This document shows positions 1-52,532 of a DNA stretch of 64,000 bases, one piece after another (within the stretch, counting starts at the first letter, position 1; every line of letters starts with the position of its first letter). The translations under genes were made by a program, and so were the position numbers. This DNA is from Clostridia bacterium (lineage in GTDB: Bacteria > Bacillota > Clostridia > Oscillospirales > CAG-272): contig JAFVOP010000031.1 of assembly GCA_017505745.1 (NCBI GenBank), forward strand, positions 50,712 to 114,711, written 5' to 3'. The notes under the pieces are model-generated. The model saw nothing but the letters and a program-made list of their open reading frames with translations. It ran no database searches and had not been told where the DNA came from.

Positions 1-234
1 ACGGGAGCGACGGCAACCGCCATTCGCCAAGCTCTGGACGCCTATCGGGAAAAGACCGGCGCCGAGCTGCCGATCTACACCGATCCCGATTTTACGCGCG
101 CCGTGATGCTGGCGCGGAGCGTAGCAAAACCGGGTGACACGGTGCTCCTGTCCCCCGCATGTACCAGCTTTGACGCGTTCAAAAATTTTGAAGAGCGCGG
201 CGACACGTTCAAGCAGATCGTGCAGTCGTTCTGA
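1..234 (+). CDS. murD: UDP-N-acetylmuramoylalanine--D-glutamate ligase, C-terminal fragment (5' end outside window)
   Basis: Frame +1 is open from nt 1 to TGA at 232-234. It reads ...[35 protein letters not shown], the conserved Mur-ligase/MurD C-terminal motif. Absent from the ORF track because it has no start in the window. Confidence 0.7.
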
Positions 235-309
235 ATAAAAAACAAGAAGGAGAAAAAACATGGATCAGAATCCGTATCAATCCTATCAACCTTATGAGCA
301 AGCACCCCC

Positions 310-1254
310 GTGGTCAAAAACGCGGCCTATTACCGCGCCAAGGCAAGAGAGGTGCTCAAGCCTTGCTATTGGTATGCCGTTCTCGCGGCGCTGATCGCAT
401 CGTTTTTGGGCGGTGTTACATCCGGAGTCCCGGTGAATGTCAATTTCAATTTTGGCTCCGGCAATTTCTCGGAAACCAAAGTGCAGCTCGATTCGTTCCT
501 GCACAAGTTTGAGGAGAAGGGCTTTGCGGCCTTTGAAGAGGTGATGCCCTTCCTGATCATTTTTATCAGCATCTTTGCCGTAGCCATGCTGTTTGCGCTT
601 TTGCTGTATCTCTTCGTTGGAGCACCGGTGGCACTTGGGTATCAAAGATACAATTTGCACGTTGTTGACGGAGAAGGAAAAAAGCTGGACGTCCTGTTCC
701 GCTATTTTAAGGTGGGTTACCTGAAATCGGTGGGCGCGCGCCTGCTTTACGATCTGATCCTCGCCGCGTGCGCGTTGCCGCTGGCGGCCGTGAGCGGACT
801 TCTGCTCTGGGGCAACCGCGGCGTGATCATGAGTTTGTTCCGCGGAGACGCAACGCCTTGGGCGTGGGCCTCGCTGGCGTTGATCTCTCTCGTGATCTTC
901 GCCGTATCGCTTCTGACGGCCCTGCTGCAGACCTGGCTGAAATACCGCTATGCGTTTTGCTTTATGATTCTTGCGGAATATCCCGAGCTTTCGGTTTTGG
1001 ATGCCTTCCGCAACTCGGCGTCCCTGATGCGCGGCAAAAAATGGAGATTTTTCTGCCTGCAATTGAGCTTTTTGGGGTGGATCTTGCTTGCGACATTCTG
1101 CACCTGCGGAATCGGTGTGATCTTTCTCACTCCCTATAGGCAAGCGGCAAACGCGGCATTTTATGACGAGATTACCAACCGCACCGCCGCCAAGGAGACC
1201 GAATTCCCCAGCCTCAATCCCGACGATTACAGCCCCGACAACGCGCGGTGGTAA
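310..1254 (+). CDS. DUF975-family integral membrane protein
   Basis: N-terminus YYRAKAREVLKPCYWYAVLAALIASFLGG, several hydrophobic helices, and C-terminal FLTPYRQAANAAFYDEI are typical of DUF975. The GTG start at 310 has no Shine-Dalgarno sequence (see finding on ATG 260). Confidence 0.65.
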   Translation: MVKNAAYYRAKAREVLKPCYWYAVLAALIASFLGGVTSGVPVNVNFNFGSGNFSETKVQLDSFLHKFEEKGFAAFEEVMPFLIIFISIFAVAMLFALLLYLFVGAPVALGYQRYNLHVVDGEGKKLDVLFRYFKVGYLKSVGARLLYDLILAACALPLAAVSGLLLWGNRGVIMSLFRGDATPWAWASLALISLVIFAVSLLTALLQTWLKYRYAFCFMILAEYPELSVLDAFRNSASLMRGKKWRFFCLQLSFLGWILLATFCTCGIGVIFLTPYRQAANAAFYDEITNRTAAKETEFPSLNPDDYSPDNARW

Positions 1255-7316: not shown

Positions 7317-8039
7317 TTACCCCTCAAAGCGCTTGGCGGCGGCGGTGAGGCTGTAATTTTTGATTCCGATGCGAATGGTTTCCCATTGCTCGGCGGAGCC
7401 GGCGAAGGTGACGCGACAGAGCGTAGCACAGTTGTAAAAGGCCATGTCGCAGATCTCCACGGTTACGCCGCGGATAAGGACTTCTTCTCCCGCACGCTTG
7501 GCGGGGTATTGGATCAGGGTCCGCTCGTCGGCGGTGTAGAGGACGCCGTCGATATCGCAATACGTCGCGTTTTGCGGACTGACCGAGATGTAGAGCAGAT
7601 TGGGGCAATTGGCAAAGGCCAGCTCCCCGATCTGTCGGACCGAGGCAGGGATCTGCACCGCTGTGACCGTGGAAGAGCCGTAAAAGGCGCGCGCATCGAT
7701 CGCCGTTACGCGGTCTCCCGTGGGGGCAAGCTCGGGGATGACCACACAGGCGTCGGCGCAGCTCCCAATGCTCACCAAGCGGCAGGTCCCGTCTCCTCGG
7801 CTGGCGTAGCGAAGTCCGCCGGGAGCCTCGGTATCCTCGGTCTCGCTCTCCGATTCGGTCTCCTCGGGGCGCGTGTCCGATTCGGTTTGTGTAGCCGAGG
7901 GCTCCGAAGCCGTTTCCTTTGGGAGAAACGACGGCTCCTCGCGCAGATGCGACACACAAACCGCCGCCACCGCAAAGGAAAGCGCAATGGCAAACGAAAA
8001 CACAAGCGTCAAAAGCAAGCCTTGGGATTGCGGTCTCAT
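7317..8039 (-). CDS. Membrane-anchored leucine-rich-repeat (BspA-type) surface protein
   Basis: ATG 8039 with AAAGGAG SD. N-terminal TM segment LLLTLVFSFAIALSFAVAAVCV, an acidic Ser/Thr/Glu linker, then LRR units (IPASVRQIGELAFANCPNLLYISV; ICDMAFYNCATLCRVTF). Confidence 0.7.
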   Translation of the reverse strand: MRPQSQGLLLTLVFSFAIALSFAVAAVCVSHLREEPSFLPKETASEPSATQTESDTRPEETESESETEDTEAPGGLRYASRGDGTCRLVSIGSCADACVVIPELAPTGDRVTAIDARAFYGSSTVTAVQIPASVRQIGELAFANCPNLLYISVSPQNATYCDIDGVLYTADERTLIQYPAKRAGEEVLIRGVTVEICDMAFYNCATLCRVTFAGSAEQWETIRIGIKNYSLTAAAKRFEG

Positions 8040-8240
8040 GGGGGTTCTCCTTTCTTTTGTACGTCCTATAAATATCCGATTTTTATTATGCCACGGCTTG
8101 CCTCGCCCGTCAAGCAAAACCGTATCCCGAAAACCGACAAAAAGCCGCCTCCCTCGTCGGATCCCGGCTCCCTTTTTGACCGCGCGCGGCGAAAAAGAAC
8201 AAACCAAAGCGGTTTGTGCGATGAAAATCTGAAAAAAGAC

Positions 8241-8269
8241 TTGCAATCGGAGCGGGACTGTGATACAAT
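8241..8269 (+). promoter_or_regulatory. Sigma-A type promoter of the HprK-like/PqqD/S24 operon
   Basis: TTGCAA, a 17-nt spacer, then TACAAT, 28 nt upstream of ATG 8297. Confidence 0.5.
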
Positions 8270-8296
8270 AAAGAAAATCCAAGAAGGGAGAGCGCT

Positions 8297-8995
8297 ATGT
8301 TTGTCATGGAATTGGCGGGTGTCCGCATGCGAATTGAAAATCGGTTCGAATTTGTGGAAAAGCAGTGCCGCGAGTACGTTTGCGAGGATGGCGAGGTTGC
8401 TTTTTCGGTAGCCGTTACCGAAGAGGAAATTGCCGAGGAGCAAAAAAACGGCGATTTTTCCGCCGCGTACTGTGAGAGCATCTGCGTTTACCGCCATATC
8501 TGCGAGCAGCTGGCTGTACATAACGTTTTTCTGATGCACTCGTCGGTCCTGGAGGTGGACGGATACGCCTACGCCTTTACCGCCAAAAGCGGCGTTGGAA
8601 AATCCACGCATACAAGGCTCTGGCTTAAAAACGTCCCGCGCGCCCGCGTGCTCAACGGCGACAAACCGCTGTACCGCCTGGAGCCCGATGGCTCGGTGAC
8701 GGTGTTTGGCACCCCCTGGAACGGCAAGGAGAACTGGGGCGAAAAGATTTCGGCTCCGCTGGCCGCCGTTTGCTTTCTCGAGCGCGGGGCAGAGAATTCG
8801 ATCCGCCGTGCCGAGGAGTTTGAAGCGGTGGGACGCTTGGCTCACCAGCTCTATTTGCGCGGCGACCGCACGCTGGTCAATCAACAGCTGGCCCTGATGG
8901 ACGGCCTGGTACGCGCCGTTCCCTATTACGTGCTTGCCTGCACCATTTCGGACGAGGCGGCACTTCTCGCGTGGGAGACCATGCGCAAATCTTAA
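8297..8995 (+). CDS. HPr-kinase-related P-loop protein (HprK C-terminal-domain-like)
   Basis: Walker-A-like AFTAKSGVGKSTHTRLWL followed by VLNGDKP...FGTPWNGKE, resembling HprK-related kinases found next to PqqD-like genes. Confidence 0.6.
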   Translation: MFVMELAGVRMRIENRFEFVEKQCREYVCEDGEVAFSVAVTEEEIAEEQKNGDFSAAYCESICVYRHICEQLAVHNVFLMHSSVLEVDGYAYAFTAKSGVGKSTHTRLWLKNVPRARVLNGDKPLYRLEPDGSVTVFGTPWNGKENWGEKISAPLAAVCFLERGAENSIRRAEEFEAVGRLAHQLYLRGDRTLVNQQLALMDGLVRAVPYYVLACTISDEAALLAWETMRKS

Positions 8996-9013
8996 TGTAA
9001 GGAGAAAATCATT

Positions 9014-9283
9014 ATGCGGATCAATCCCGATTTTACGATTCAAAAGGTAGGAGCCTCCTCCTACGTAGCCGTTCCGGTTGGAAAAACCAGCGAGACCTTT
9101 CACGCCATGGTACGCCTGAACGAAACGGGGGCCTTTTTGTGGAAGCGGATGACGGAAAAGGACTGCACTGAGGAGGATCTGGTTGCGGCATTGCTGGAGA
9201 CATATGAGATCGATGCCGAAACCGCCGCAAGGGACGTACATCGCATCGTAGAGATCCTGCGCGACAGTCGGGTGTTTGCATGA
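9014..9283 (+). CDS. PqqD-family peptide-binding (RRE-type) protein
   Basis: 89 aa with ...MVRLNETGAFLWKRMTEKDCTEEDLVAALLETYEIDAETAARDVHRIVEILRDSRV, the typical PqqD winged-helix signature. SD TAAGGAG. Confidence 0.8.
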   Translation: MRINPDFTIQKVGASSYVAVPVGKTSETFHAMVRLNETGAFLWKRMTEKDCTEEDLVAALLETYEIDAETAARDVHRIVEILRDSRVFA

Positions 9284-9717
9284 GCGAATCGATTGAAGAG
9301 GTATTGGCGCGGGACGGATATTATGTGCGCACCACCGTTGGGGTGAGCATGCGCCCCATGCTGCGCAACCGCCGCGACCGCGTGATCATTCGCCCCGTGG
9401 GCGAGGAACGCCTCAAGCGCTGGGATCTGCCGCTCTACCGCCGTCCCGACGGGAAATGCGTGCTGCATCGGATCATTGACGTAAAAGACGGCTATTACGT
9501 CATCCGAGGCGACAATACTTATGCCAAGGAACGCGTTCCCGACGAATGGGTGATCGGCGTGATGAGCGAATTTTATCGCGGCAAGCGCCACGTAACGGCT
9601 ACGCAGAAGAGCTACCGCTTTTACGCGGCGGCGTGGCAGACCCTCTATCCGCTCCGCTATCCGTTCCACCTGTGCCGTGTGCTGGCTGCAAAGGTCAAGC
9701 ACAAGCTTTTTGGATAA
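9280..9717 (+). CDS. S24/S26-family serine peptidase (LexA/signal-peptidase fold), apparently cytoplasmic
   Basis: GVSMRPML nucleophile motif and ...VLHRIIDVKDGYYVIRGDN. ATGA overlap with the PqqD stop indicates translational coupling. No N-terminal TM segment. Confidence 0.75.
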   Translation: MSESIEEVLARDGYYVRTTVGVSMRPMLRNRRDRVIIRPVGEERLKRWDLPLYRRPDGKCVLHRIIDVKDGYYVIRGDNTYAKERVPDEWVIGVMSEFYRGKRHVTATQKSYRFYAAAWQTLYPLRYPFHLCRVLAAKVKHKLFG

Positions 9718-9754
9718 AATATTTAAAAAGCGATTCCGATATTTGTGCATTTTT

Positions 9755-9800
9755 AACAACCCTTTTTCAAGGAAAATGAAAAAAGGGTTGTTATTTTTAT
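9755..9800 (+). terminator. Intrinsic terminator of the three-gene operon
   Basis: AACAACCCTTTT ... AAAAGGGTTGTT stem followed by ATTTTTAT. Confidence 0.75.
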
Positions 9801-9833
9801 AATTTTTATATTTTCTTTTTGAGAAAATGTATT

Positions 9834-9861
9834 TTCAAGACGTCTTGCGGTATGATATAAT
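9834..9861 (+). promoter_or_regulatory. Promoter of the MBL/GLUG gene (extended -10)
   Basis: TTCAAG, a 16-nt spacer, then TGaTATAAT. It leaves a leader of about 110 nt before ATG 9979. Confidence 0.45.
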
Positions 9862-9978
9862 AATCAAACAGGAACGTGTGAGACAGATGGTCGGGTCTGT
9901 CCCTCGAGCTTGTTCGCAGATGCGTTTTCCCCGAAAACAAGCATTTTAATCTGATTCATGGAAAGGAGAAAATGAAAC

Positions 9979-12861
9979 ATGAAAAAACTCGTAAGCCTAT
10001 TACTGGCATTCTGCAGCATCCTCACCCTGCTCGTATTCCCGGTTGGAGCCGAAACGGTGTCCACAACCGCCACGGGAATTATCGCGCCGCCGTCCAAAAC
10101 CGACCTGACGGCATACGTAACGGCCAACGGCACCAAAACCGTAACCGACGTGTACAACAACTGCCTTCTCCTTACGGTGGAAGGTACCACGGGAGGCGAG
10201 TGGAACACCTACCGCAACCTCCTGATCTCCAAGGGATATACCGAGATCGTAGGAAAATCCGAGGTTTCGGGATCCTCCAACAAGTGGGCCCTGTACGCTA
10301 CCGACAGCTACGTGGTCAACTGCTTTTACGATGCGGTCAGCAAGATCTCAAAGATCTCGATCGAGCCCCGCGACATGGATCTGGGCGTGTTTTCCAAGCC
10401 CTCTTCGGTCCAGCACGTTTGTGAGCCGATGCTGATCCAGATGGGTCTGGACGATAACACCTCCACCTCGCAACGGGATACCGAGCGCAGCGGCATGGGA
10501 TACATCCTGCGCCTGGCCGACGGTCGCTTCATTGTGTACGACGGCGGCTTTGAGGGGGTAACGCTCCAGAACGCCGACAAGATCTACAATATCATGAAAT
10601 CCTATGCGCCCACCTCGGGAGCTTATGCCAATCAGGTGGTTATCGCGGCTTGGGTGCTGACGCATCCGCACTCCGACCACATCGGCGCGTTTATGTATTT
10701 CACCAAATACTACATCGGATACACCGGCGCGCCCGCAACGCTTCAGAACGTGATCTGCAATCTGCCCAGCGCCGCGGAGAGCGCCTCGGATACCGATGCC
10801 GTGCTTGCATACGGCGCCGATGTGGACGCCGCTAAGGTGGACCGCTACAACAAAACGCTGCTGGCTCTGCAAGAGCTGGGGGTAAACGTTTACAAGGCGC
10901 ACGTGGGCCAGAAGTATTATTTCAACGAGGCCATGGTGGAGATCCTGTTCACGGCAGAAAACTTCCTGCCCGACCAGATCTCGGCGGCAAACTCGGATGT
11001 GCACGGCACCAACGCCACGTCGATCGTTTCGCGTGTGACCTGGGAGTGCTCCGCGTATACCTACTCCGCGCTCTTTACGGGAGACGCAAACTATTACACG
11101 GTCAAGGCGCTGAACAAGCTGTACGGCGCAAATCTCGCATCCTCCAATTTCGTGCAGCTTCCGCACCACGGATCGGTGAGTGAGTTCTCCGAGGGAGCGC
11201 CGCTCACAGCTCTGACCACCTTTTATAATTACGTAAATGCTTACCGCGCGCTCATGCCGGCGGGGGTTCGCTATGCCTACGTCAACCAGTGTAAGACCAC
11301 CACGGCGATCTACGAGGATGAAGCGCGCCTGATCGGCTATGCACAGAGATCCGGCAACCCAACCCCCAACCTGAGCCGTACGCTGATCGCAGGCTCCAGC
11401 GTAACCGCATGCACCCTTCAGTACAACACCAAAAAGGTGGTGGTGGAGACCTTTGCGGGCGCGGATTTCTATGCAACGGCTCCCACGCTGGCAAGCACAA
11501 CGGTTCCTTATAAGGACGGAAGCGTCTATCTGATCTACAACGAGGTGGGTCTGGCGGACCTGAAGGCCAGCCGCTCGTACCGCATGCTCAAGGATATGAC
11601 GGTAACTGTGATTCCCGGAGAGACCACGTATCCTCTGCTGCGCGACGATTTCTACGGCAACTTTGACGGCAACGGCTATGCGCTTGTGGTAAGAGCGCCG
11701 TCCACGGTCAGCCTGTCGTTTGCATCGGGTAAGACCAAGCGCGGATTGCTCTTCAATACGATCGGAGCCGTGACCACCGATGCAAACGGAGTCATGGCCG
11801 ACGATCAGGGCACGGTCAAGAATCTGGATATTTATGTTCCCTCGATTACGGTAAAGGGCTCGGTTGGCGGACAGTTCGGCGTGATCGCGGGAACCACGGC
11901 GGGATATTCGGTGATCAAAAACGTCAATCTGAACACCGGAAAGATCACAAAAAGCTCCACGGCAAACGCCAACGTGGGTTCGATGATCGGAAAGGTGCTT
12001 CACGGCACGCTGATTCAGAATTCCTCCTTTGTGGGGCGGATCGCCAACGGACTCACCGATACCACGGCTTACACGGCGGGCGGTCTGATCGGCTGTGTGG
12101 AAATGGTGGCGGACGATTCCTCCACCGCTAACGATAACGCGCTCCGGAGAACCGTGGGAATTCAGAATTGCTCGGTCAACGCGGGGTATTCCTCGGGCTA
12201 TATCAAGGCGTATAGCAATGCAGGAGGCCTGATCGGCCTGATCAACAAGAACCCCGTAACCGTTACGGTTTCGGGTACCACAAATACCAACGGACGTGTA
12301 ATCGCAACCACCAACGCGGGCGGCGCGATCGGAGCCATTACCTGCGCGGCCGATGTTTCGCTCAACGGCTTTACGAACAATGCGGCGGTTCCCGCATTCC
12401 ACGCGGGCGGTATTGTGGGGCAGAGCAGCTATGAGGGTGTGACTCTGGATGCTGTAAGCTGTACCAACACGGCAACCATCAAATCCACCGGTGGCGTGGC
12501 CTCCTCCAATACGGGCGGTACGGCGGGCGGCATCCTGGGATATGCAACGCTGGGAATGACGGTAACGGCAAGCAACTTTACCAACAGCGGAACCATTACG
12601 GTAGAGGTAGCGAATACGGCAAGGATCGGATCGCTCTTCGGCCGTCTCGGTACCACCGCAGGAAACGCTCCGGCGGTTACGGTCAACGGAGCCACCAACT
12701 CGGGCACCGTTTCCTCAAACGCGGTATACGAGGGCATTTGGGCAGGTCATATTTCGGGTGCCAGCAAAACGGCTACCTATTTCAACAACTGTGTGAATAC
12801 AAACACGGCCACCGCTGCCTTGAACCCGGTTGGCATCGGAAACGCCACGTCGATCTCCTGA
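9979..12861 (+). CDS. Exported MBL-fold metallo-hydrolase with C-terminal GLUG-like repeat region
   Basis: Signal peptide MKKLVSLLLAFCSILTLLVFPVGAE. MBL motif AAWVLTHPHSDHIGAF and later QLPHHGS. C-terminal half has about 8 repeats of the type AGGLIGCV / AGGLIGLI / AGGAIGAI / AGGIVGQS / AGGILGY. Confidence 0.7.
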   Translation: MKKLVSLLLAFCSILTLLVFPVGAETVSTTATGIIAPPSKTDLTAYVTANGTKTVTDVYNNCLLLTVEGTTGGEWNTYRNLLISKGYTEIVGKSEVSGSSNKWALYATDSYVVNCFYDAVSKISKISIEPRDMDLGVFSKPSSVQHVCEPMLIQMGLDDNTSTSQRDTERSGMGYILRLADGRFIVYDGGFEGVTLQNADKIYNIMKSYAPTSGAYANQVVIAAWVLTHPHSDHIGAFMYFTKYYIGYTGAPATLQNVICNLPSAAESASDTDAVLAYGADVDAAKVDRYNKTLLALQELGVNVYKAHVGQKYYFNEAMVEILFTAENFLPDQISAANSDVHGTNATSIVSRVTWECSAYTYSALFTGDANYYTVKALNKLYGANLASSNFVQLPHHGSVSEFSEGAPLTALTTFYNYVNAYRALMPAGVRYAYVNQCKTTTAIYEDEARLIGYAQRSGNPTPNLSRTLIAGSSVTACTLQYNTKKVVVETFAGADFYATAPTLASTTVPYKDGSVYLIYNEVGLADLKASRSYRMLKDMTVTVIPGETTYPLLRDDFYGNFDGNGYALVVRAPSTVSLSFASGKTKRGLLFNTIGAVTTDANGVMADDQGTVKNLDIYVPSITVKGSVGGQFGVIAGTTAGYSVIKNVNLNTGKITKSSTANANVGSMIGKVLHGTLIQNSSFVGRIANGLTDTTAYTAGGLIGCVEMVADDSSTANDNALRRTVGIQNCSVNAGYSSGYIKAYSNAGGLIGLINKNPVTVTVSGTTNTNGRVIATTNAGGAIGAITCAADVSLNGFTNNAAVPAFHAGGIVGQSSYEGVTLDAVSCTNTATIKSTGGVASSNTGGTAGGILGYATLGMTVTASNFTNSGTITVEVANTARIGSLFGRLGTTAGNAPAVTVNGATNSGTVSSNAVYEGIWAGHISGASKTATYFNNCVNTNTATAALNPVGIGNATSIS

Positions 12862-15689: not shown

Positions 15690-15839
15690 GGAAGGTTCCT
15701 CCTTTGTATTCGGCGCCAACCGTTTGGCGCGCTCTATCCGTAACGTCGCTTTTTTTCTCTGTCGGTTACACCGCTCTGCTTAAAATATAACATGAATTAC
15801 GGAAAAATGCAAGAAAAGGGAAATGATTTTCCAAAAGAA

Positions 15840-15868
15840 TTGCATTTTATCGGCATTTGTGGTACAAT
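15840..15868 (+). promoter_or_regulatory. Sigma-A type promoter for tldD-pmbA
   Basis: TTGCAT, a 17-nt spacer, then TACAAT. Confidence 0.45.
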
Positions 15869-15905
15869 AAGGGGGATGAACTTACCAAACGAAGGGAGAC
15901 AACCT

Positions 15906-17285
15906 ATGATATCGAAAGCATTGGCGGAATCGGTGCTCGCGTGCGCAATGGCGGGCGGCGCCGATTTTGTGGAGCTCTACGGGGAGATCACCCGTAACAA
16001 CGCGGTCTCGATGGTAGACGGAAAGATCGACCGCGTGACCGATAATCTGATCTCGGGCGTGGGCATTCGCGCATTTTTGGGAACGCGGACAGTGTTTGCC
16101 TCCACCTCGGATACCTCGCGCGAGGGGTTGATGAAGTGCGCGCGGTCGGTGGCGGCCGCGATGGGCGAGCTTCGCGCGGTGGAGCGCGTGATCCTGAACG
16201 AGCGGATCTTTCCCAACATTCACCCCGTTCGCACCGTGCCCTCGGGCGTGGACGCCAAGGTGCGGGCAGACCTGCTCCGCGCGGGCTGCTTTGCCGCAAA
16301 GGACTACGATGCGTCGATCTCGCAGGTGTCGGGATCTCTGTCGGGCGTGGATCACACGATCTGGATCGCCAACACCGAGGGGCTTTACACCACCGACCGC
16401 CACGTGCGCACCCGCATCGCGGTATCTGCCGTAGCCAGCGCCGCGGGCGTGAACCAATCGGGCTCGGCCTCTCCGGGAGCCGGTATGGGGTTGGAATTTT
16501 TTGAAGCCGTGGATCCGCGTGACGTAGGCCGCGAGGCGGCCAGACAGGCAACCGTAAATCTGCGCGCCGACTACTGCCCGGCGGGAACCATGACGGTAGC
16601 CATTGAAAACGGCTTTGGCGGCGTGATCTTCCACGAGGCCTGCGGACATTCGCTCGAGGCCAGCTCGGTGGCCATCGGCGCTTCGCAAATGGCGGGCAAG
16701 CTCGGTCAGCAGATCGCAAACGCCAAGGTGACCGCCATTGATGACGGCACAATTCCGGGTGCGTGGGGCTCGGTGAATATTGACGACGAGGGAACGCCCA
16801 CGCAGCGCAACGTCCTGATCGAAAACGGCGTTCTCAAAAGCTATATGATCGACCGTCTCGGCTCGCGCCGCATGGGTCTCCCTATGACCGGAAGCGGCCG
16901 CAGACAAAGCTACACCTACGAACCCACCTCGCGCATGACCAATACCTTCCTTGCCAACGGCCCCGACAAAAACGAGGATATCATTGCCTCCATGGAATAC
17001 GGCCTTTACTGCCGCAAGATGGGTGGCGGCTCGGTCAATCCCCTCACGGGCGCATTCAATTTTGCCGTGACCGAGGGCTATCTTGTACGAAACGGTAAGA
17101 TCTGTGAGCCGGTACGCGGCGCGTCTCTGATCGGAACCGGCTCCGAGATCCTGCAAAACATCGACATGGTGGGGCAGAATTTGGAACGGGCCCAGGGCAT
17201 GTGCGGATCCTCCAGCGGAAGCATTCCCACCGACGTGGGACAGCCGCTCATCCGTGTTTCCACCATTACCGTAGGAGGTCGCTGA
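15906..17285 (+). CDS. tldD: TldD-family metalloprotease
   Basis: ATG 15906. Sequence ...GVGIRAF...HEACGHSLEA (HExxxH)...DDEGTPTQRNVLIENGVLKSYM. Confidence 0.9.
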   Translation: MISKALAESVLACAMAGGADFVELYGEITRNNAVSMVDGKIDRVTDNLISGVGIRAFLGTRTVFASTSDTSREGLMKCARSVAAAMGELRAVERVILNERIFPNIHPVRTVPSGVDAKVRADLLRAGCFAAKDYDASISQVSGSLSGVDHTIWIANTEGLYTTDRHVRTRIAVSAVASAAGVNQSGSASPGAGMGLEFFEAVDPRDVGREAARQATVNLRADYCPAGTMTVAIENGFGGVIFHEACGHSLEASSVAIGASQMAGKLGQQIANAKVTAIDDGTIPGAWGSVNIDDEGTPTQRNVLIENGVLKSYMIDRLGSRRMGLPMTGSGRRQSYTYEPTSRMTNTFLANGPDKNEDIIASMEYGLYCRKMGGGSVNPLTGAFNFAVTEGYLVRNGKICEPVRGASLIGTGSEILQNIDMVGQNLERAQGMCGSSSGSIPTDVGQPLIRVSTITVGGR

Positions 17286-17286
17286 A

Positions 17287-18630
17287 ATGATATTTGAAGA
17301 AATGAAGCAAGCATTGGTGGCCGCCGCCGAGCGCGCGGGGCTTACCCAATACGAGATCTATTCCCAATTGGAAGAAAGCATCAGCGCCGAAACCCTCAAG
17401 GACGAGATCAGCTCCTTTGCTTCCAGTGTGAGCGGCGGCATCTGCTTCCGCTGCATCGTGGACGGCAAGATGGGCTACGCCTCGGGCGAGCGGATGACGG
17501 CGGACGCGATGGAAGAGCTGGTCAGCCGAGCCATCTCCAACGCGCAGTGCATTGATAACGATGACGAGGTGTTTATTTTTGCGGGCTCTCCCGCCTATGC
17601 CACGCTTCCCGAACGGGAGGTGCGCCTGACCGATGCCAAGACCGTGCGCGACACGGCGCTGGCCTTGCAAACGGCTACCTATGCCGAGAGCGACAAGGTG
17701 GGCGACGGAACCCAATCGGCCGTGATCTCCGCCGTGCAGGAGATCCATCTGTACAACTCGAACGGCCTGAGCCTTTCCAACCGCGTGGGCATGAGCGGCG
17801 CGTACGCGATGCCCGTGGTGCGTGACGGGGAGGAGGCCCAGGAGTCCTTTGAGTTTGCGCTCGGCGCCTCGGCAGAGGCCTTTTCCGAGCTCCCGAAGAA
17901 AAGCGTGCAGAAAGCGCTGGACAAGATGGGCGCAGGCTTGGTGGAATCGGGAAAATACGACGTGCTCTTTGACGGAAAACAGTTCCGGCAGTTTCTTTCC
18001 ACCTTCTCTCCCGTGTTCTCGGCCAAAAACGCGCAGCTGGGGCTGTCGCTGCTGGCAGGCAAGGAGGGCGAGAAGATCGCCGCTGATTGCGTGACGGTCA
18101 CCGACGATCCCATGCAACAGGATTCACCGATGCAGACCTCCTTTGACGGCGAGGGTGTTGCCACCGCGCGCAAGAGCGTGATCGAGAACGGCGTGCTGAA
18201 AACCCTGCTCTACGATCTCACCACCGCCAAAAAGGCCGGTGTGGAATCTACGGGCAACGGACAAAAACAAAGCTATGCCGCGCCCGTGTCGATCGCGCCG
18301 TACCATTTTGCCATTGAGGCGGGGGAGAGGACCGAGGAGGAGCTGCTTGCGGCGATCGGAAACGGACTCTATATCACCGAATGCAAGGGCTTTCATGCGG
18401 GGGCCAACGCTGTGACCGGAGATTTTTCGATTGAGAGCGCGGGCTTTGTGATCCGTGACGGAAAGCGCGCCGAGCCGGTGAAATCCTTTACGGTTGCGGG
18501 CAACTTCTTCGAGCTTTTAAAGGCGGTCGATCTGCTTGGAAATGAGATCAAATGGGGCGTTCCCGGCAGCTTTACGGTGTTCGGCTCACCCGACGTTGTG
18601 GTCCGCGGCATGAGCGTGGCCGGAAAATAA
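17287..18630 (+). CDS. pmbA: PmbA/TldE-family protein (TldD partner)
   Basis: Adjacent to tldD with a 1-nt gap. Sequence ...FDGEGVATARKSVIENGVLKTLLYD...GFHAGANAVTGDFS. Confidence 0.85.
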   Translation: MIFEEMKQALVAAAERAGLTQYEIYSQLEESISAETLKDEISSFASSVSGGICFRCIVDGKMGYASGERMTADAMEELVSRAISNAQCIDNDDEVFIFAGSPAYATLPEREVRLTDAKTVRDTALALQTATYAESDKVGDGTQSAVISAVQEIHLYNSNGLSLSNRVGMSGAYAMPVVRDGEEAQESFEFALGASAEAFSELPKKSVQKALDKMGAGLVESGKYDVLFDGKQFRQFLSTFSPVFSAKNAQLGLSLLAGKEGEKIAADCVTVTDDPMQQDSPMQTSFDGEGVATARKSVIENGVLKTLLYDLTTAKKAGVESTGNGQKQSYAAPVSIAPYHFAIEAGERTEEELLAAIGNGLYITECKGFHAGANAVTGDFSIESAGFVIRDGKRAEPVKSFTVAGNFFELLKAVDLLGNEIKWGVPGSFTVFGSPDVVVRGMSVAGK

Positions 18631-27307: not shown

Positions 27308-29113
27308 TTATTGGATCTTTTGATTGGGCGTGATCAGGACCTTGCTGTCCGAGCCGTCGTAGGGAAGTACAAATACGGTGGTATCAAATTTTGCGTAGAA
27401 GACCTTGGAGAATTGCAGCAGGGGCACCACCCAGTCCTTCTTTTCCCAGGTGCCGATCTTGTGCGGGCCGAGCGGGATCAGCGAATATTTGGGGGAGGCA
27501 AGCACGGGATAGCGAGGATCGGTGGGGCCGATGGAATGGTGAGGAGCCTGATAGAAATCGACCTCCAGATCATCCCCGTACATGTGGATCATCACCTGAT
27601 TGGAATCGGTATGCGTATCTCCGTTGAAGAGGATCGTTTGTCCTTCAACGGTCAGTCTGGAAACGATGGACAGGTTATTGGAGGCTCCCAAAGCAACCCC
27701 CGAACGCAGATCGTGTGTGTAGAGGATATCAAGTACGGCATCGCCAAAGCGGTATACCTGCCCGGGATGACACTTGTGAACTGCCGTGCCCGTCTTTTCC
27801 AGCTTTGCAATAACGGCGCGGTATGCATGGATCTTTTCATCCAGATCGGCGGTTTTGTCGGTTGTTGCGCCTGCCTGATAATCCGAGGGATTATTGATCA
27901 GCAGATTTTTGACGCGGTATTGCGAGCTGTTTGCGTAATTGTTGCAGAAATATTCAAAAGCGCCGATGTGGTCGTTATGCGGGTGCGTGATCACCCAGGC
28001 GGCAATAATGATATTGTTGGGATTGGGGGCGTATTTTCTCATCACCTGCAGCAGTCGCTCGCAGCATTGGTACTCCTTGTATTGGGAGTCGTTATGACCG
28101 CCGTCCCAGATCAGGAACTGACCGTTGGAAAGGCGAACCACATAGCTCATGCCGTTGTGATCCTCGCTTCCGTAGGGCGTGATGCCGATCTGGATCAGAA
28201 GCGGCGAGGTAACCTTACTCGTGGCGGTATTTTCATAGCTGATATATGCATTTTTCTCCAACGGCTCGATGATCAGGCGGGACGTATCATTGTAGGCGGT
28301 GTGGATCGCGGTGACCGTATAGGAGGAGTTTGCATACAGGGCATACGGATTGTCGCTGTTAAGGATCTCGCGGCTTTCCCTTTGGGTATAGCCGGCGGCA
28401 GCCAGCTGAGCGAGGTAGCTGTTGTGATCCTGAAGAGACATTTCATGAAGGGCCAGTACGTAGCAGCCGTCGCCCGCGTCGGTGAGAGTGTACTCGTTGT
28501 CTGCGGGGCTGGCAGGAAGCTGATTCACCATCGAAAGCGCGGTGCCGCTCACCGTTGTGTCGGCAGGGATCACGATGCTTTTATCCTCGGTTACAGACTC
28601 TTCCAGAAGCGTGATAAACCGCTCCACGGCAATGTCCAACGAGGTGACGGTGGGCGCAGTGATCACGATCTTATTGCCAACCGGAGCAATGAGATAATCT
28701 CCCCAGGCAACGGTAGCCAGTGCCTGCTCGGTTTCCCCGTAGGCGGTGATTCCGATCAGGATCTCCCGGGCTTTGGAGTCGTAGGTCTCATTTTTGGGAA
28801 TGTAGTCGTCCTTTACGGAAACCTTATCTCCGGTGAGATCTTCAAGGACGTTCTTGATCCTTGCGACATGCGCCTTTTCAAAAAAGGTCGTGTTGTCATA
28901 ATCGTAAGGGTAGACGATGTTAAACAGGGCGTCTCCTTCTTTGGCAATGACGATGTCCTCGTCTGCGGGAGCGGTTTCGGTTTCGCTGACCGATTCGCTC
29001 TCGGAATCACTCTCCGCAGCGTCGGTATCAACGGGAGGCTTGCCCGACTCGCAGGAAGAAAAGGTCAGCAAAAGCAGGCAAAGGGCAAGAAGAAAAGAAA
29101 GATGTTTTTTCAT
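27308..29113 (-). CDS. Lipoprotein, MBL-fold metallo-hydrolase (paralogue of 9979..12861 N-terminal half)
   Basis: ATG 29113 with AAAGGAG SD. Lipobox LLLLTFSSC. AAWVITHPHNDHIGAF and QAPHHS motifs. Shares the pre-MBL domain pattern (...IEP...LLIQIG...GMSYVVRL.NGQF.I.DGG) with the 9979 protein. Confidence 0.7.
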   Translation of the reverse strand: MKKHLSFLLALCLLLLTFSSCESGKPPVDTDAAESDSESESVSETETAPADEDIVIAKEGDALFNIVYPYDYDNTTFFEKAHVARIKNVLEDLTGDKVSVKDDYIPKNETYDSKAREILIGITAYGETEQALATVAWGDYLIAPVGNKIVITAPTVTSLDIAVERFITLLEESVTEDKSIVIPADTTVSGTALSMVNQLPASPADNEYTLTDAGDGCYVLALHEMSLQDHNSYLAQLAAAGYTQRESREILNSDNPYALYANSSYTVTAIHTAYNDTSRLIIEPLEKNAYISYENTATSKVTSPLLIQIGITPYGSEDHNGMSYVVRLSNGQFLIWDGGHNDSQYKEYQCCERLLQVMRKYAPNPNNIIIAAWVITHPHNDHIGAFEYFCNNYANSSQYRVKNLLINNPSDYQAGATTDKTADLDEKIHAYRAVIAKLEKTGTAVHKCHPGQVYRFGDAVLDILYTHDLRSGVALGASNNLSIVSRLTVEGQTILFNGDTHTDSNQVMIHMYGDDLEVDFYQAPHHSIGPTDPRYPVLASPKYSLIPLGPHKIGTWEKKDWVVPLLQFSKVFYAKFDTTVFVLPYDGSDSKVLITPNQKIQ

Positions 29114-29334
29114 ACAAACGGACTCCTTTTTTATAGAATTCAACGAAATTATAGCTTTTTCATAAAAGGAAGTCAATGATAATTTCGATACTGACTTGAA
29201 GTTTTCGAAACAAAAATTGCAGGGTGGCTTCTGCATTTCGTATAAAAAAAGAGCGGTTGATGTGTCTGCGATAAAGCAGACAGAACGGCATAACCTAAAA
29301 ACGGATATGCCGTTCTTTTTTCTCCAATCCAACC

Positions 29335-50267: not shown

Positions 50268-50328
50268 CTGTAGTATTGGTTTGAAACAGGCGATCTCTGT
50301 GGTCGCTGTTTGGGGAAGGAGCAAAAAA

Positions 50329-51528
50329 ATGGAAGTACAAATTGAAGACATCATGCTTGCTCTGATCCGCAAGGTTGTTTGCGATAGAGAAATCAGCGCA
50401 ACGGTTGAAAATGCCATTATTCCGGAGGTTTTTCCGCAGTTATATGTGCTTTCCAAATCTCACGATATGGCGCATATCGTAGCACATGGACTTTCAGAAC
50501 TAGACCTGTTGGGAGAAGATGATATTTCACAGAAGTTTCAAAAGCAAAAAATGTTGGCGCTTTATCGTTATCAAAAGATGAGTTATGAGCTGGAGAGGAT
50601 CTGCCATGTATTAGAGAACGCCAAAATACCTTTTATCCCATTAAAAGGGGCTGTGATCCGTCAATATTATCTTCAACCCTGGATGCGTACCAGCTGCGAT
50701 ATTGATGTGCTTGTTCATGAGATACATTTAAAATCCGCGATTGATGCTCTGACAGACCAATTGCATTACAAAAATGGGGGACAAAGTTCCCACGATGTTT
50801 CTTTGTTTTCTAAAAGTGGAGTTCACGTAGAGTTGCATTATGATTTGATTGAGAAAATTCGTTATCCTACTGCTGTAAAGTTGCTTTCCAAAGTATGGAT
50901 TTATGCGGAACCTCAAAGCGGGTTCATGTATCACCATCGGTTGAAAGAAGAGATGTTTTACTTTTATCACACCGTACATATGGCGAAGCATTTTGAAAAT
51001 GGTGGGTGCGGAGTGCGAATGGTGGTAGATCAGTGGATTTTGGATCATTGCGTGTCTTGCAATATTGACAACCGTAATTCTTTAATTTTGGAGGGCAATT
51101 TAAAGCAGTTTAATGACTTGGCAAAAGCCTTGGCAGACGTATGGTTTTCGAATGAAAGGGGGAATGAATTAACTAAGGCGATGTCTGCATACATTATAAC
51201 AGGTGGGATTTACGGAAACAGGGAAAATAGCGTGGCAGTAAAACGCTCAAAAGAAGGGCGCTTCTGGAGATATGTCATGTCACGTCTTTTTTTACCATAT
51301 GATACTCTTTCTAGACAATACCCTATTCTTCAAAGAAAAAAATGGTTACTCCCTTTTATGCAGGTTTGTAGATGGTTTCGTTTGTTCCGCAAAGAGAGTA
51401 TGAAACGCACTGTTCGTGAGTTGAAAACGAATCGGAATATGTCAAAAGAGAAAATTCTCAGTACAACGGATCTTTTGAGAAATCTTGGGCTGAATGAAAA
51501 TGCCAACTCGTTAGACAAAAAATGTTGA
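50329..51528 (+). CDS. Uncharacterised nucleotidyltransferase family protein (NTP_transf_5-like)
   Basis: ATG 50329 with AAGGAG SD. Sequence ...IPFIPLKGAVIRQYYLQPWMRTSCDIDVLVHE...HVELHYDL resembles the PF14907-type family (recognised by eye). Confidence 0.6.
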   Translation: MEVQIEDIMLALIRKVVCDREISATVENAIIPEVFPQLYVLSKSHDMAHIVAHGLSELDLLGEDDISQKFQKQKMLALYRYQKMSYELERICHVLENAKIPFIPLKGAVIRQYYLQPWMRTSCDIDVLVHEIHLKSAIDALTDQLHYKNGGQSSHDVSLFSKSGVHVELHYDLIEKIRYPTAVKLLSKVWIYAEPQSGFMYHHRLKEEMFYFYHTVHMAKHFENGGCGVRMVVDQWILDHCVSCNIDNRNSLILEGNLKQFNDLAKALADVWFSNERGNELTKAMSAYIITGGIYGNRENSVAVKRSKEGRFWRYVMSRLFLPYDTLSRQYPILQRKKWLLPFMQVCRWFRLFRKESMKRTVRELKTNRNMSKEKILSTTDLLRNLGLNENANSLDKKC

Positions 51529-51584: not shown

Positions 51585-51884
51585 AACGGAACTGTCCCTC
51601 CATAGTGACAAAGGTTTCATTACGTTTTTCAAGCATATTTCAACCTAACAAAATCATACCGCACCATGCCGTTAATGTCAAGTAGGGGAAATCCTTATGA
51701 CAACGCTATGGCTGAAAATTTCTTTTCCATTCTCAAAATCGAGCGTATTTACCGAACCAAACTCAGAACCTATGAGGAGGCGCGCCTCCTCATAGGTGAA
51801 TACATCCACTTCTACAACAACGAACGTATCCAACTCAAAACAAAACTGACACCACTCGAGAAGCGATGCCAGTTTGTTGCTTAA
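51585..51884 (+). pseudogene. IS3-family transposase (OrfB) 3' remnant with frameshift
   Basis: ELSLHSDKGF, then a +1 shift, then HYVFQAYFNLTKSYRTMPLMSSRGNPYDNAMAENFFSILKIERIY...FYNNERIQLKTKLTPLE, the conserved end of IS3 DDE transposases. Confidence 0.8.
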
Positions 51885-51974: not shown

Positions 51975-52532
51975 TCAGTTTTCCAGCTGTCTGCCCAAAA
52001 AGCCGGCGGCGGTGAGGATGAGCTTGGTCTCCACTTCAGTACCGGGGACGTCACGGCGCGTGTCACGGGGTTGGTCGGTAACCGATGCCACGCAGCCCAC
52101 GATATCTCCGGCGCTGATGATCGGCATGGCGCAGCTGACGGAATACGCGCCCCCCTCTGCCAATACGGGGATCGGCTCACTGTCCTCGCGGTGGAAATAC
52201 AGGCTTCTGCCCTCAATGATCTGCTCAAGCTCCTCGGAGAGAGCCTTCTCGGTGTAGTCCTTTTTGGGGACTCCCGCACAGGCGATGACGGCGTCGCGGT
52301 CGCAGATCACCACCGAGAGGGAGCAGGTTTTGTGGAGGGTCTCGGCGTATTGCGAGGCAAACGCAGCAAGCTCTCCAATGGGAGAGTACTTCTTGAAAAT
52401 GACCTCTCCCTCGCGGTCGGTATAAATTTCGAGAGGGTCGCCCTCGCGGATGCGCATGGTTCTTCGGATCTCTTTGGGGATAACAACACGTCCGAGGTCA
52501 TCGATTCTTCTGACAATTCCTGTGGCTTTCAT
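51975..52532 (-). CDS. spoVT: Stage V sporulation protein T (AbrB-family regulator)
   Basis: MKATGIVRRIDDLGRVVIPKEIRRTMRIREGDPLEIYTDREGEVIFKKYSPIGEL plus a GAF-like C-terminal domain. Confidence 0.9.
   Translation of the reverse strand: MKATGIVRRIDDLGRVVIPKEIRRTMRIREGDPLEIYTDREGEVIFKKYSPIGELAAFASQYAETLHKTCSLSVVICDRDAVIACAGVPKKDYTEKALSEELEQIIEGRSLYFHREDSEPIPVLAEGGAYSVSCAMPIISAGDIVGCVASVTDQPRDTRRDVPGTEVETKLILTAAGFLGRQLEN

Follow-up and report, generated by a model that had tools for sequence, protein, structure and literature searches.

The 64,000-nucleotide stretch of DNA analysed here, from the Clostridia bacterium contig JAFVOP010000031.1 (hereafter the window), carries at 8297-9717 a three-gene operon encoding a P-loop protein (K), a PqqD-type recognition element (B) of the kind used to produce RiPPs (ribosomally synthesized peptides that are modified after translation), and a small signal-peptidase-like protease (S). 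By analogy with a pathway described in Bacilli, we consider that K-B-S is probably, at a rough probability of 0.65, the enzymatic core of a linear polyphosphorylated peptide (LPP)-type pathway, representing a clostridial sister lineage whose precursor is encoded elsewhere in the genome. An earlier sequence-only reading had described the trio as a self-contained module of unknown function. That description no longer stands: the architecture was published in May 2026 as LPP (PMC13381572). The enzyme set, order and mechanism of LPP were thus already known; new here are the clostridial relatives with their own precursor motif, and the three-gene form.

Popov et al. (Nat Commun 2026, May; PMC13381572) defined LPP as a RiPP family in Bacilli. 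Its clusters encode a precursor (LppA), an HprK-like kinase (LppK), a discrete RiPP recognition element or RRE (LppB) and a signal peptidase I-like peptidase (LppS), together with an MsbA-like exporter (LppD) and an NTP_transf_5 enzyme (LppN), and they are often embedded within capsular polysaccharide loci. The system studied was that of Paenibacillus alginolyticus DSM5050, with the gene order lppA-K-B-S-D-N. Heterologous expression, gene deletions and mass spectrometry showed that LppK adds 1-4 phosphates to Ser3 of the LppA core. LppS cuts off the 27-residue leader after an FET motif, and the unphosphorylated precursor is a poor substrate. In vitro, cleavage needs LppB, and the S29A, H68A and D93A mutants of LppS are inactive. 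Precursors are present as 1-3 open reading frames (ORFs) per cluster, share the leader YxxPxVLxHQxIxFETxxS and reach 200 residues in length.

The window trio has the same enzyme types in the same order: an HprK-like kinase, a discrete RRE encoded beside the peptidase, and a SipW-like cytoplasmic peptidase. K and S match the family models that mark LPP neighbourhoods, TIGR04249 and TIGR02228. The domain table of the Bacilli study lists TIGR02228 in 126 of 126 neighbourhoods and 67 matches to TIGR04249 (ScmC), which we take to be that study's kinases (PMC13381572). The likeness extends to the Asn/Tyr/Asp groove residues of the PqqD protein, and to the presence in the genome of a capsule/exopolysaccharide locus carrying an NTP_transf_5 gene. 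By contrast, identity to the proteins of Bacilli is only about 26-38%, the third catalytic acid of the peptidase is Glu rather than Asp, the RRE and peptidase fall outside the LPP RRE clade and cluster 1 of the published classification, and the operon itself includes no precursor, MsbA-like exporter or NTP_transf_5 gene. No MsbA-type ABC exporter or ABC_membrane protein was found anywhere among the window ORFs that were scanned or matched to annotated relatives.

The operon is compact. Three co-directional ORFs lie on the forward strand where the sequence-only reading had placed them: K (8297-8995; 232 residues), a P-loop protein and predicted LppK-like peptide kinase; B (9014-9283; 89 residues), a discrete LppB-like RRE; and S (9280-9717; 145 residues), a predicted LppS-like leader peptidase of the cytoplasmic SipW/archaeal signal-peptidase-I type. 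K and B are separated by 18 nt, with an AAGGAGA ribosome-binding site upstream of the B ATG, and the B and S frames do overlap by ATGA. Both of the motifs that had drawn attention, AKSGVGKST in K and GVSMRPML in S, are found in the translated ORFs. A promoter had been placed at 8241, and a consensus scan finds a sigma-70-like site on that strand at 8241-8269 (TTGCAA, 17 nt, TACAAT, with the TG of an extended -10 element; 9 of 12 consensus positions). On this consensus match it is a putative promoter; the scan saw 5 such sites in the region against 1.5 expected. A terminator had been placed at 9755. The consensus scan called none there, though RNA folding gives an intrinsic-terminator-like hairpin in the forward orientation at 9754-9793 (element to 9803), with a 16-pair stem followed by the U-rich run AUUUUUAUAAUUUUU (dG -17.2 kcal/mol, z -1.99). 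The scan missed this hairpin because its stem is A/U-rich. Nothing credible came from an Rfam scan of 7900-10100.

K has the fold of a kinase. A single-sequence AlphaFold model was discarded (predicted local distance difference test score, pLDDT, 38.6) and replaced by an AlphaFold2 model from a 39-sequence alignment (pLDDT 94.3, predicted template-modelling score 0.90). This model consists of an HprK/PEPCK-type P-loop fold and an N-terminal domain of about 75 residues. When it was compared with the PDB by Foldseek, the top match was Lactobacillus casei HprK/P (1jb1; E 3.9e-6, probability 1.0), followed by PEPCK, at modest TM-scores of 0.35-0.51. The resemblance to the HprK kinase domain that had been read from the sequence is therefore borne out, and the P-loop protein does not lack a kinase fold. 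K carries His81, S98-G-V-G-K-S-T104, N120-G-D-K123 and P140-W-x-G-K-E145. Across a 52-sequence family alignment His81, S98-G-x-G-K-[ST]-T104, N120-G-D-K123 and G-T-P-W-x-G-K-E are invariant, and the motifs are found in 79 of 81 loci. Judged from the alignment, these are the residues expected of a P-loop kinase with an HprK/PEPCK-type fold.

The family assignments of K and S, weak by single-sequence model, are borne out by a precomputed Pfam assignment, the confident structure model and conservation of the catalytic motifs. In the protein database K has the precomputed Pfam assignment PF27840 'ScmC'. As a single sequence it matches the TIGR04249 ScmC hidden Markov model (HMM) at E 0.0098 (15.3 bits against a cut-off of 125) and HprK_rel_A, the model for HprK-related kinase A, at E 0.014, and it has no match in a local copy of Pfam, Hpr_kinase_C included. 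Its relatives in fuller loci reach E 4e-8 to 5e-6 with TIGR04249, and match the HPr(Ser) kinase model TIGR00679 only at about E 2e-4, far under the cut-off. K shares with PEPCK and the HprK/P C-terminal domain the P-loop fold, the order of motifs and the top structural matches; it differs from HprK/P in its N-terminal domain. We rejected the idea that K is itself an HPr kinase/phosphorylase: neither Hpr_kinase_C nor TIGR00679 is matched above threshold, no gene context links it to HPr, and the likeness is one of fold only. Sequence and profile searches of the PDB with K and S returned P-loop or chance matches only (ABC ATPases, beta-lactamase inhibitor protein, and signal peptidase I at E ~1), which we set aside, and a literature search on the name 'ScmC' gave unrelated acronyms only.

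The identity of B as a PqqD-type RRE, proposed earlier, is unambiguous from its sequence: it matches PF05402 PqqD at E 5.3e-18. Its best NCBIfam matches are the lasso_PqqD models (E 9e-10 and 2e-5), and it matches ScmD weakly (E 0.026). We compared B and S by BLASTP with sequences from Supplementary Data 1 of PMC13381572. B is 41% identical to an RRE of cluster 4 of the published sequence similarity network (SSN), 37% identical to one of SSN cluster 9, and 26-38% identical to LppB over about 45 residues (E 8e-6 and 6e-3). The crystal structure of LppB shows the leader Tyr and Pro held by N33, Y60 and D70 (PMC13381572). The equivalents in B are N36, Y64 and D74, and these are kept both in the close relatives of the window trio and in loci that carry precursors.

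S is a signal-peptidase-like enzyme without an N-terminal membrane anchor, as read from its sequence. It has no match in the local Pfam copy and matches TIGR02228, the archaeal/eukaryotic-type signal peptidase I model, at E 3.5e-6, under the curated cut-off. BLASTP aligns 94 of its residues with LppS (29% identity, E 4e-7) and 133 with the one Ruminococcus peptidase of SSN cluster 9 (31% identity, E 3e-21), and it matches SSN cluster 4 peptidases at E 8e-12 and 6e-9. The invariant residues are Ser23 (in G-x-S-M-x-P; GVSMRP in S), His63-Arg64, Gly77-Asp78-Asn79 and Glu84. Among the peptidases of our locus census, G.SM.P is present in 54 of 54, HR in 51 of 54, and Glu at position GD+6 in 50 of 54.

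One claim about S has to be revised. It had been called a Ser-Lys-type peptidase, and NCBI names its relatives 'S24/S26 family peptidase'. No Lys is invariant in the family alignments. Because His63-Arg64 is invariant and Lys is not, we assign S to the SipW/Sec11-like Ser/His enzymes rather than to the Ser/Lys enzymes; Ser23, His63-Arg64 and Asp78/Glu84 reproduce the SipW/Sec11/archaeal S26B pattern. The LexA-type S24 and bacterial S26A (Ser-Lys dyad) assignments were rejected, as the conserved general-base Lys was not found. Three boxes, G-x-S-M-x-P, H-R and G-D-N, are common to S and the SipW, Sec11 and archaeal type I signal peptidases (MEROPS S26B), as is, by prediction, Ser/His catalysis without a Lys general base. 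Unlike these enzymes, S has just 145 residues and no N-terminal anchor, and a cytoplasmic RRE, not the Sec translocon, is predicted to bring its substrate.

The trio is not a peculiarity of one genome. At E <= 1e-3 the K family comprises 7,316 clusters at 50% identity. Matches to K in species-representative genomes fall in at least 579 stretches, and we profiled 80 loci from these with purpose-built HMMs. In the 60 loci with adequate flanking sequence, K is accompanied by both B and S in 35, by S only in 8 and by B only in 3, and stands alone next to unrelated genes in 14. The gene-neighbourhood check that had been called for therefore finds the PqqD protein and the peptidase next to K in 35 of 60 loci, mostly in the order K-B-S. 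Clustering of ORFs revealed one further recurrent neighbour family: a protein of about 560 residues encoded directly 3′ of S in about 20 loci, with the ABC_membrane and ABC_tran domains of an MsbA-like exporter. A profile seeded with the window's own NTP_transf_5 gene placed such a gene next to K-B-S in 14 of the 80 loci. The fuller clostridial loci thus extend the trio to K-B-S-D-N. Protein fusions tie the components together independently; K occurs in K+NTP_transf_5, K+Peptidase_S24-like, radical-SAM+K and K+Y_phosphatase3 (tyrosine phosphatase) proteins; the family representatives with fusions are P0243, P0313, P0309, P0318, P0316 and P0337. A separate arrangement was seen in two loci (L036, 2296-3273; L055, 10779-11741), in which an Rce1-like (CPBP/CAAX) intramembrane protease is encoded directly 3′ of K with no PqqD or peptidase partner; this protease may be an alternative processing partner of K.

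Several of the clostridial loci also encode candidate precursors. We searched upstream of K for small ORFs with a ribosome-binding site and a [YWF]xxP motif, and obtained peptides of 33-42 residues, such as MKEVYETPEMEVVEFETEDIITASGELPFVPAE (L071) and MEKYETPVMEVIEFETEDVITTSDDDDITMPEI (L078). With a profile built from these peptides, candidates were detected in 19 loci; some loci have two, and the distance to K can be as great as 5-10 kb (L022, L052 and L075). Examples are the precursor-like ORFs at 9217-9318 in L071, 63-164 in L078, 2251-2379 in L067, 9344-9475 in L062, 7553-7693 in L040, 728-862 (minus strand) and 20575-20709 in L075, and 8645-8809 (minus strand) in L016; others lie in L022, L024, L028 (two), L052, L053, L066, L074 and L087. 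These ORFs encode about 30-75 residues; two profile matches sit in ORFs of 121 and 165 residues. The consensus of the small ORFs is (K)YE[TS]PxMEV[IV]xFE[TN]xDVIT[TA]SG (also written YExPxMEVIxFExEDVITTSG), followed by a variable tail that is acidic or rich in Gly, Pro and Cys. This pattern resembles the LPP leader of Bacilli, but its Pro-to-FET spacing is shorter by three residues and a conserved DVITTSG block is added. We take these ORFs to be probable LppA-like precursors whose leader is shorter. The clostridial motif strings were not found in the searchable literature, and the published LPP precursor motif has no true match in the window or in any census locus. In 12 loci without a detected precursor, the small ORFs upstream of K gave no further precursor class.

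The window trio belongs to a clade in which the three genes travel without these partners. Nine further loci (L005, L008-L012 and L088-L090) encode kinases 61-77% identical to K, and all nine consist of K-B-S only, with no MsbA-type exporter and no adjacent NTP_transf_5 gene. Their flanking genes are unrelated to those of the window and mostly to one another, and include MutS/MutL/TGT, HAD hydrolases, GDSL lipases and PAPS-reductase-like proteins. The trio is under purifying selection: pairwise ratios of nonsynonymous to synonymous substitution (dN/dS) within the clade are 0.10-0.29 for each gene over six comparisons per gene, values that are rough since synonymous sites are saturated. Two close relatives have an insert of 300-500 bp between K and B (L005, 10697-10993; L088, 10697-11200). 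The insert in L005 consists of AAATGCAAAATGCAGAATG-type repeats, and the idea that this 300-bp gap hides a precursor was dropped, as it holds repeat-like sequence only and no credible ORF.

Put together with the P. alginolyticus system, to which we look by homology for the substrate, its phosphorylation and cleavage and the product, these features suggest how the trio might work. The groove of B would bind the YxxP-type leader of a ribosomally made precursor peptide. K would phosphorylate, once or several times, a conserved Ser that lies near the leader or just beyond it. B would present the leader/core junction to the cytoplasmic S, and the leader would be removed by Ser/His catalysis. A precursor encoded elsewhere in the genome would act in trans, as would an NTP_transf_5 tailoring enzyme or exporter, if there is one. 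A 'recognise, phosphorylate, cleave' logic had been proposed from the sequence; it coincides with the mechanism shown experimentally for LppB, LppK and LppS of P. alginolyticus, and by homology it may apply to the window proteins. There is precedent for partners in trans: some peptidases in Supplementary Data 1 of the Bacilli study have their RRE and precursor encoded at other places in the genome (PMC13381572), and in the census loci, too, a precursor can be as far as 5-10 kb from K. The likeliest place for the substrate gene of the window trio is another part of the genome.

If this reading is right, it changes the reach of the LPP pathway, previously defined solely in Bacilli from 126 peptidases. 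Gut and rumen Clostridia carry the sister lineage in abundance, and it provides more systems, and more varied ones, for finding the mature LPP product and its function. The three-gene form is a natural test of whether maturation enzymes can serve precursors encoded far away. Proteins annotated 'hypothetical protein' (K) and 'S24/S26 family peptidase' (S) can be given a specific predicted role.

A number of observations weigh against assigning the trio to LPP. As the sequence-only reading had found for the immediate surroundings, no precursor is encoded in cis: regular-expression and profile scans of the 64 kb in six frames detected neither an LPP-type nor a clostridial-type precursor, and the nine clade loci, with up to 10 kb on each side, gave no precursor match. 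The window's S and B proteins fall outside the experimentally studied SSN cluster 1 and are nearer to clusters 9 and 4; these clostridial clusters are RRE-associated, with RREs classed as 'other' and precursors as 'ND', and only cluster 1 was analysed (PMC13381572). The single-sequence HMM scores of K and S are under the curated cut-offs, and the proposed homology of K to LppK comes from shared family models and a modelled fold, not from a pairwise alignment. Finally, the essential Asp93 of LppS (GD+6) aligns with Glu84 of S (window 9529-9531) in an ungapped alignment. From the alignments, the Glu that most clostridial peptidases have at this position suggests that the SipW-type active site occurs here in a Ser/His/Glu form. 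When window ORFs with an upstream Shine-Dalgarno sequence were scanned leniently for [YWF]xxPx[LVIMFA] close to the N-terminus, only chance or internal matches appeared. One of these, YYKPVIYLYPE, lies within a larger minus-strand gene.

Could the trio act on an ordinary protein instead of a small peptide? It might have been co-opted for the RRE-guided, phosphorylation-dependent N-terminal maturation of a cellular or secreted protein encoded elsewhere, an explanation we regard as unlikely. A version in which RiPP machinery became an intracellular protein-maturation or regulatory system, with Ser phosphorylation and clipping by the Ser/His/Glu peptidase, seems just as doubtful. In ten clade loci the trio stands alone among unrelated housekeeping genes with no exporter or precursor alongside, which fits such a role. 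The published precursors extend to 200 residues, and the census profile reaches into the 121- and 165-residue ORFs described above. Moreover, about a quarter of the adequately flanked loci have K without B or S, which suggests wider uses of the kinase. Against this, no window protein with a leader-like N-terminus was found, and the neighbours are not conserved, so that none is plausible as a fixed substrate. The groove residues of the RRE, too, match those of loci carrying small precursors.

The LPP-type assignment has also to be set against lasso peptides. The trio could supply an accessory kinase, a second RRE and a peptidase to a paeninodin-type lasso cluster elsewhere in the genome. HprK-like kinases and NTP_transf_5 enzymes do tailor the lasso peptides of Firmicutes, B matches the NCBIfam lasso PqqD models, and more than half of LPP-carrying Bacilli also encode lasso enzymes, often with the clusters side by side (PMC13381572). 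As is predicted for the window trio, the paeninodin and pseudomycoidin clusters (PadeK, PsmN, split B1/B2) pair a PqqD B1-like RRE with an HprK-like kinase that phosphorylates a Ser of the bound precursor, and an NTP_transf_5 partner is optional. The window differs from these clusters in having no macrolactam cyclase and no cysteine-protease B2, and in the predicted use of a serine signal-peptidase-like enzyme to remove the leader. The absence of the lasso cyclase and B2 protease reported earlier holds: those window ORFs that were scanned or could be matched to annotated relatives include neither of these nor a radical-SAM enzyme, and no Asn-synthase-like cyclase or transglutaminase-like B2 is among the recurrent neighbours of K. 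A SipW-like leader peptidase would be superfluous in a lasso pathway, which brings its own B1/B2 pair, and the LPP and lasso RREs of Bacilli each discriminate against the leader of the other system (PMC13381572). We consider a lasso role quite improbable.

That the trio is a decaying, non-functional remnant of a full A-K-B-S-D-N cluster is very unlikely. The precursor, exporter and nucleotidyltransferase genes of related loci are indeed missing beside it, and the K-B insertion in some relatives might be taken as a sign of decay. But the three ORFs are intact with all catalytic motifs present, the dN/dS values argue against decay, and the three-gene form persists in at least 10 loci with differing flanks.

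It is barely credible that the trio is a SynChlorMet (SCM) cassette in reduced form, with ScmC and ScmD serving radical-SAM/SPASM enzymes encoded elsewhere: ScmC is the family nearest to K in Pfam and NCBIfam, B has its weak match to ScmD and one relative is a radical-SAM+K fusion, but this nearest named HMM family with a PqqD-like partner (ScmC/ScmD plus two radical-SAM/SPASM enzymes; TIGR04248-04251) is matched far under its cut-off, no ScmE/ScmF radical-SAM/SPASM partners were found in the window or among the recurrent neighbours, and radical-SAM genes do not recur beside K as the peptidase, ABC exporter and NTP_transf_5 genes do.

Two genes of the window had been named as candidate partners of the trio. 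The first is an NTP_transf_5 gene homologous to LppN (50281-51528, forward strand; PF14907 at E 2.5e-34). At the family level the proposal stands: there are the fusions to K, the 14 of 80 loci with an adjacent gene, and LppN itself. For the window gene it is overstated: this lies 40.5 kb from the trio, outside the operon, and is not inherited with it. It may nevertheless act in trans with the trio, echoing the association of LPP with capsule loci. A related observation comes from L089, whose kinase is 75% identical to K: there an NTP_transf_5 gene (1-842, minus strand) lies about 9 kb upstream of the trio, beside glycyl-tRNA synthetase, which hints that the nucleotidyltransferase stays in the genome though unlinked from the trio.

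The window NTP_transf_5 gene is the last gene of a 21-kb polysaccharide island (30479-51528) with a low GC content of 0.38-0.41, against 0.52-0.61 around the operon and elsewhere. The island encodes a Wzx/Wzy-type pathway with a DegT aminotransferase, Bac_transf, GT2 and GT4 glycosyltransferases, EpsG and a flippase, as well as a glycerophosphotransferase, sugar-nucleotide enzymes and a GNAT protein, and was probably acquired horizontally. Directly after it comes a C-terminal fragment of an IS3-family transposase (51666-51884), with spoVT (51975-52532, minus strand) beyond. The ORF downstream of the NTP_transf_5 gene was considered as a precursor and rejected: it is this transposase fragment.

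The second proposed partner is the exported metallo-beta-lactamase (MBL)-like protein encoded immediately downstream (9979-12861; 960 residues), which has a Sec-type signal peptide, long Gly/Thr/Asn-rich repeats and a weak metallo-beta-lactamase domain. This proposal fails: kinases 75-77% identical to K have quite different neighbours. Neither the MBL-like protein nor the LRR_5 protein encoded upstream is conserved beside the trio, and because the clade flanks are unrelated we regard both as incidental neighbours. A second large window protein with a weak metallo-beta-lactamase domain is encoded at 27308-29332 on the minus strand. Elsewhere in the window, at 15792-18630, TldD and PmbA metallopeptidase genes lie side by side. 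Some RiPPs, for example microcin B17, are processed by such a pair, but these are also housekeeping genes.

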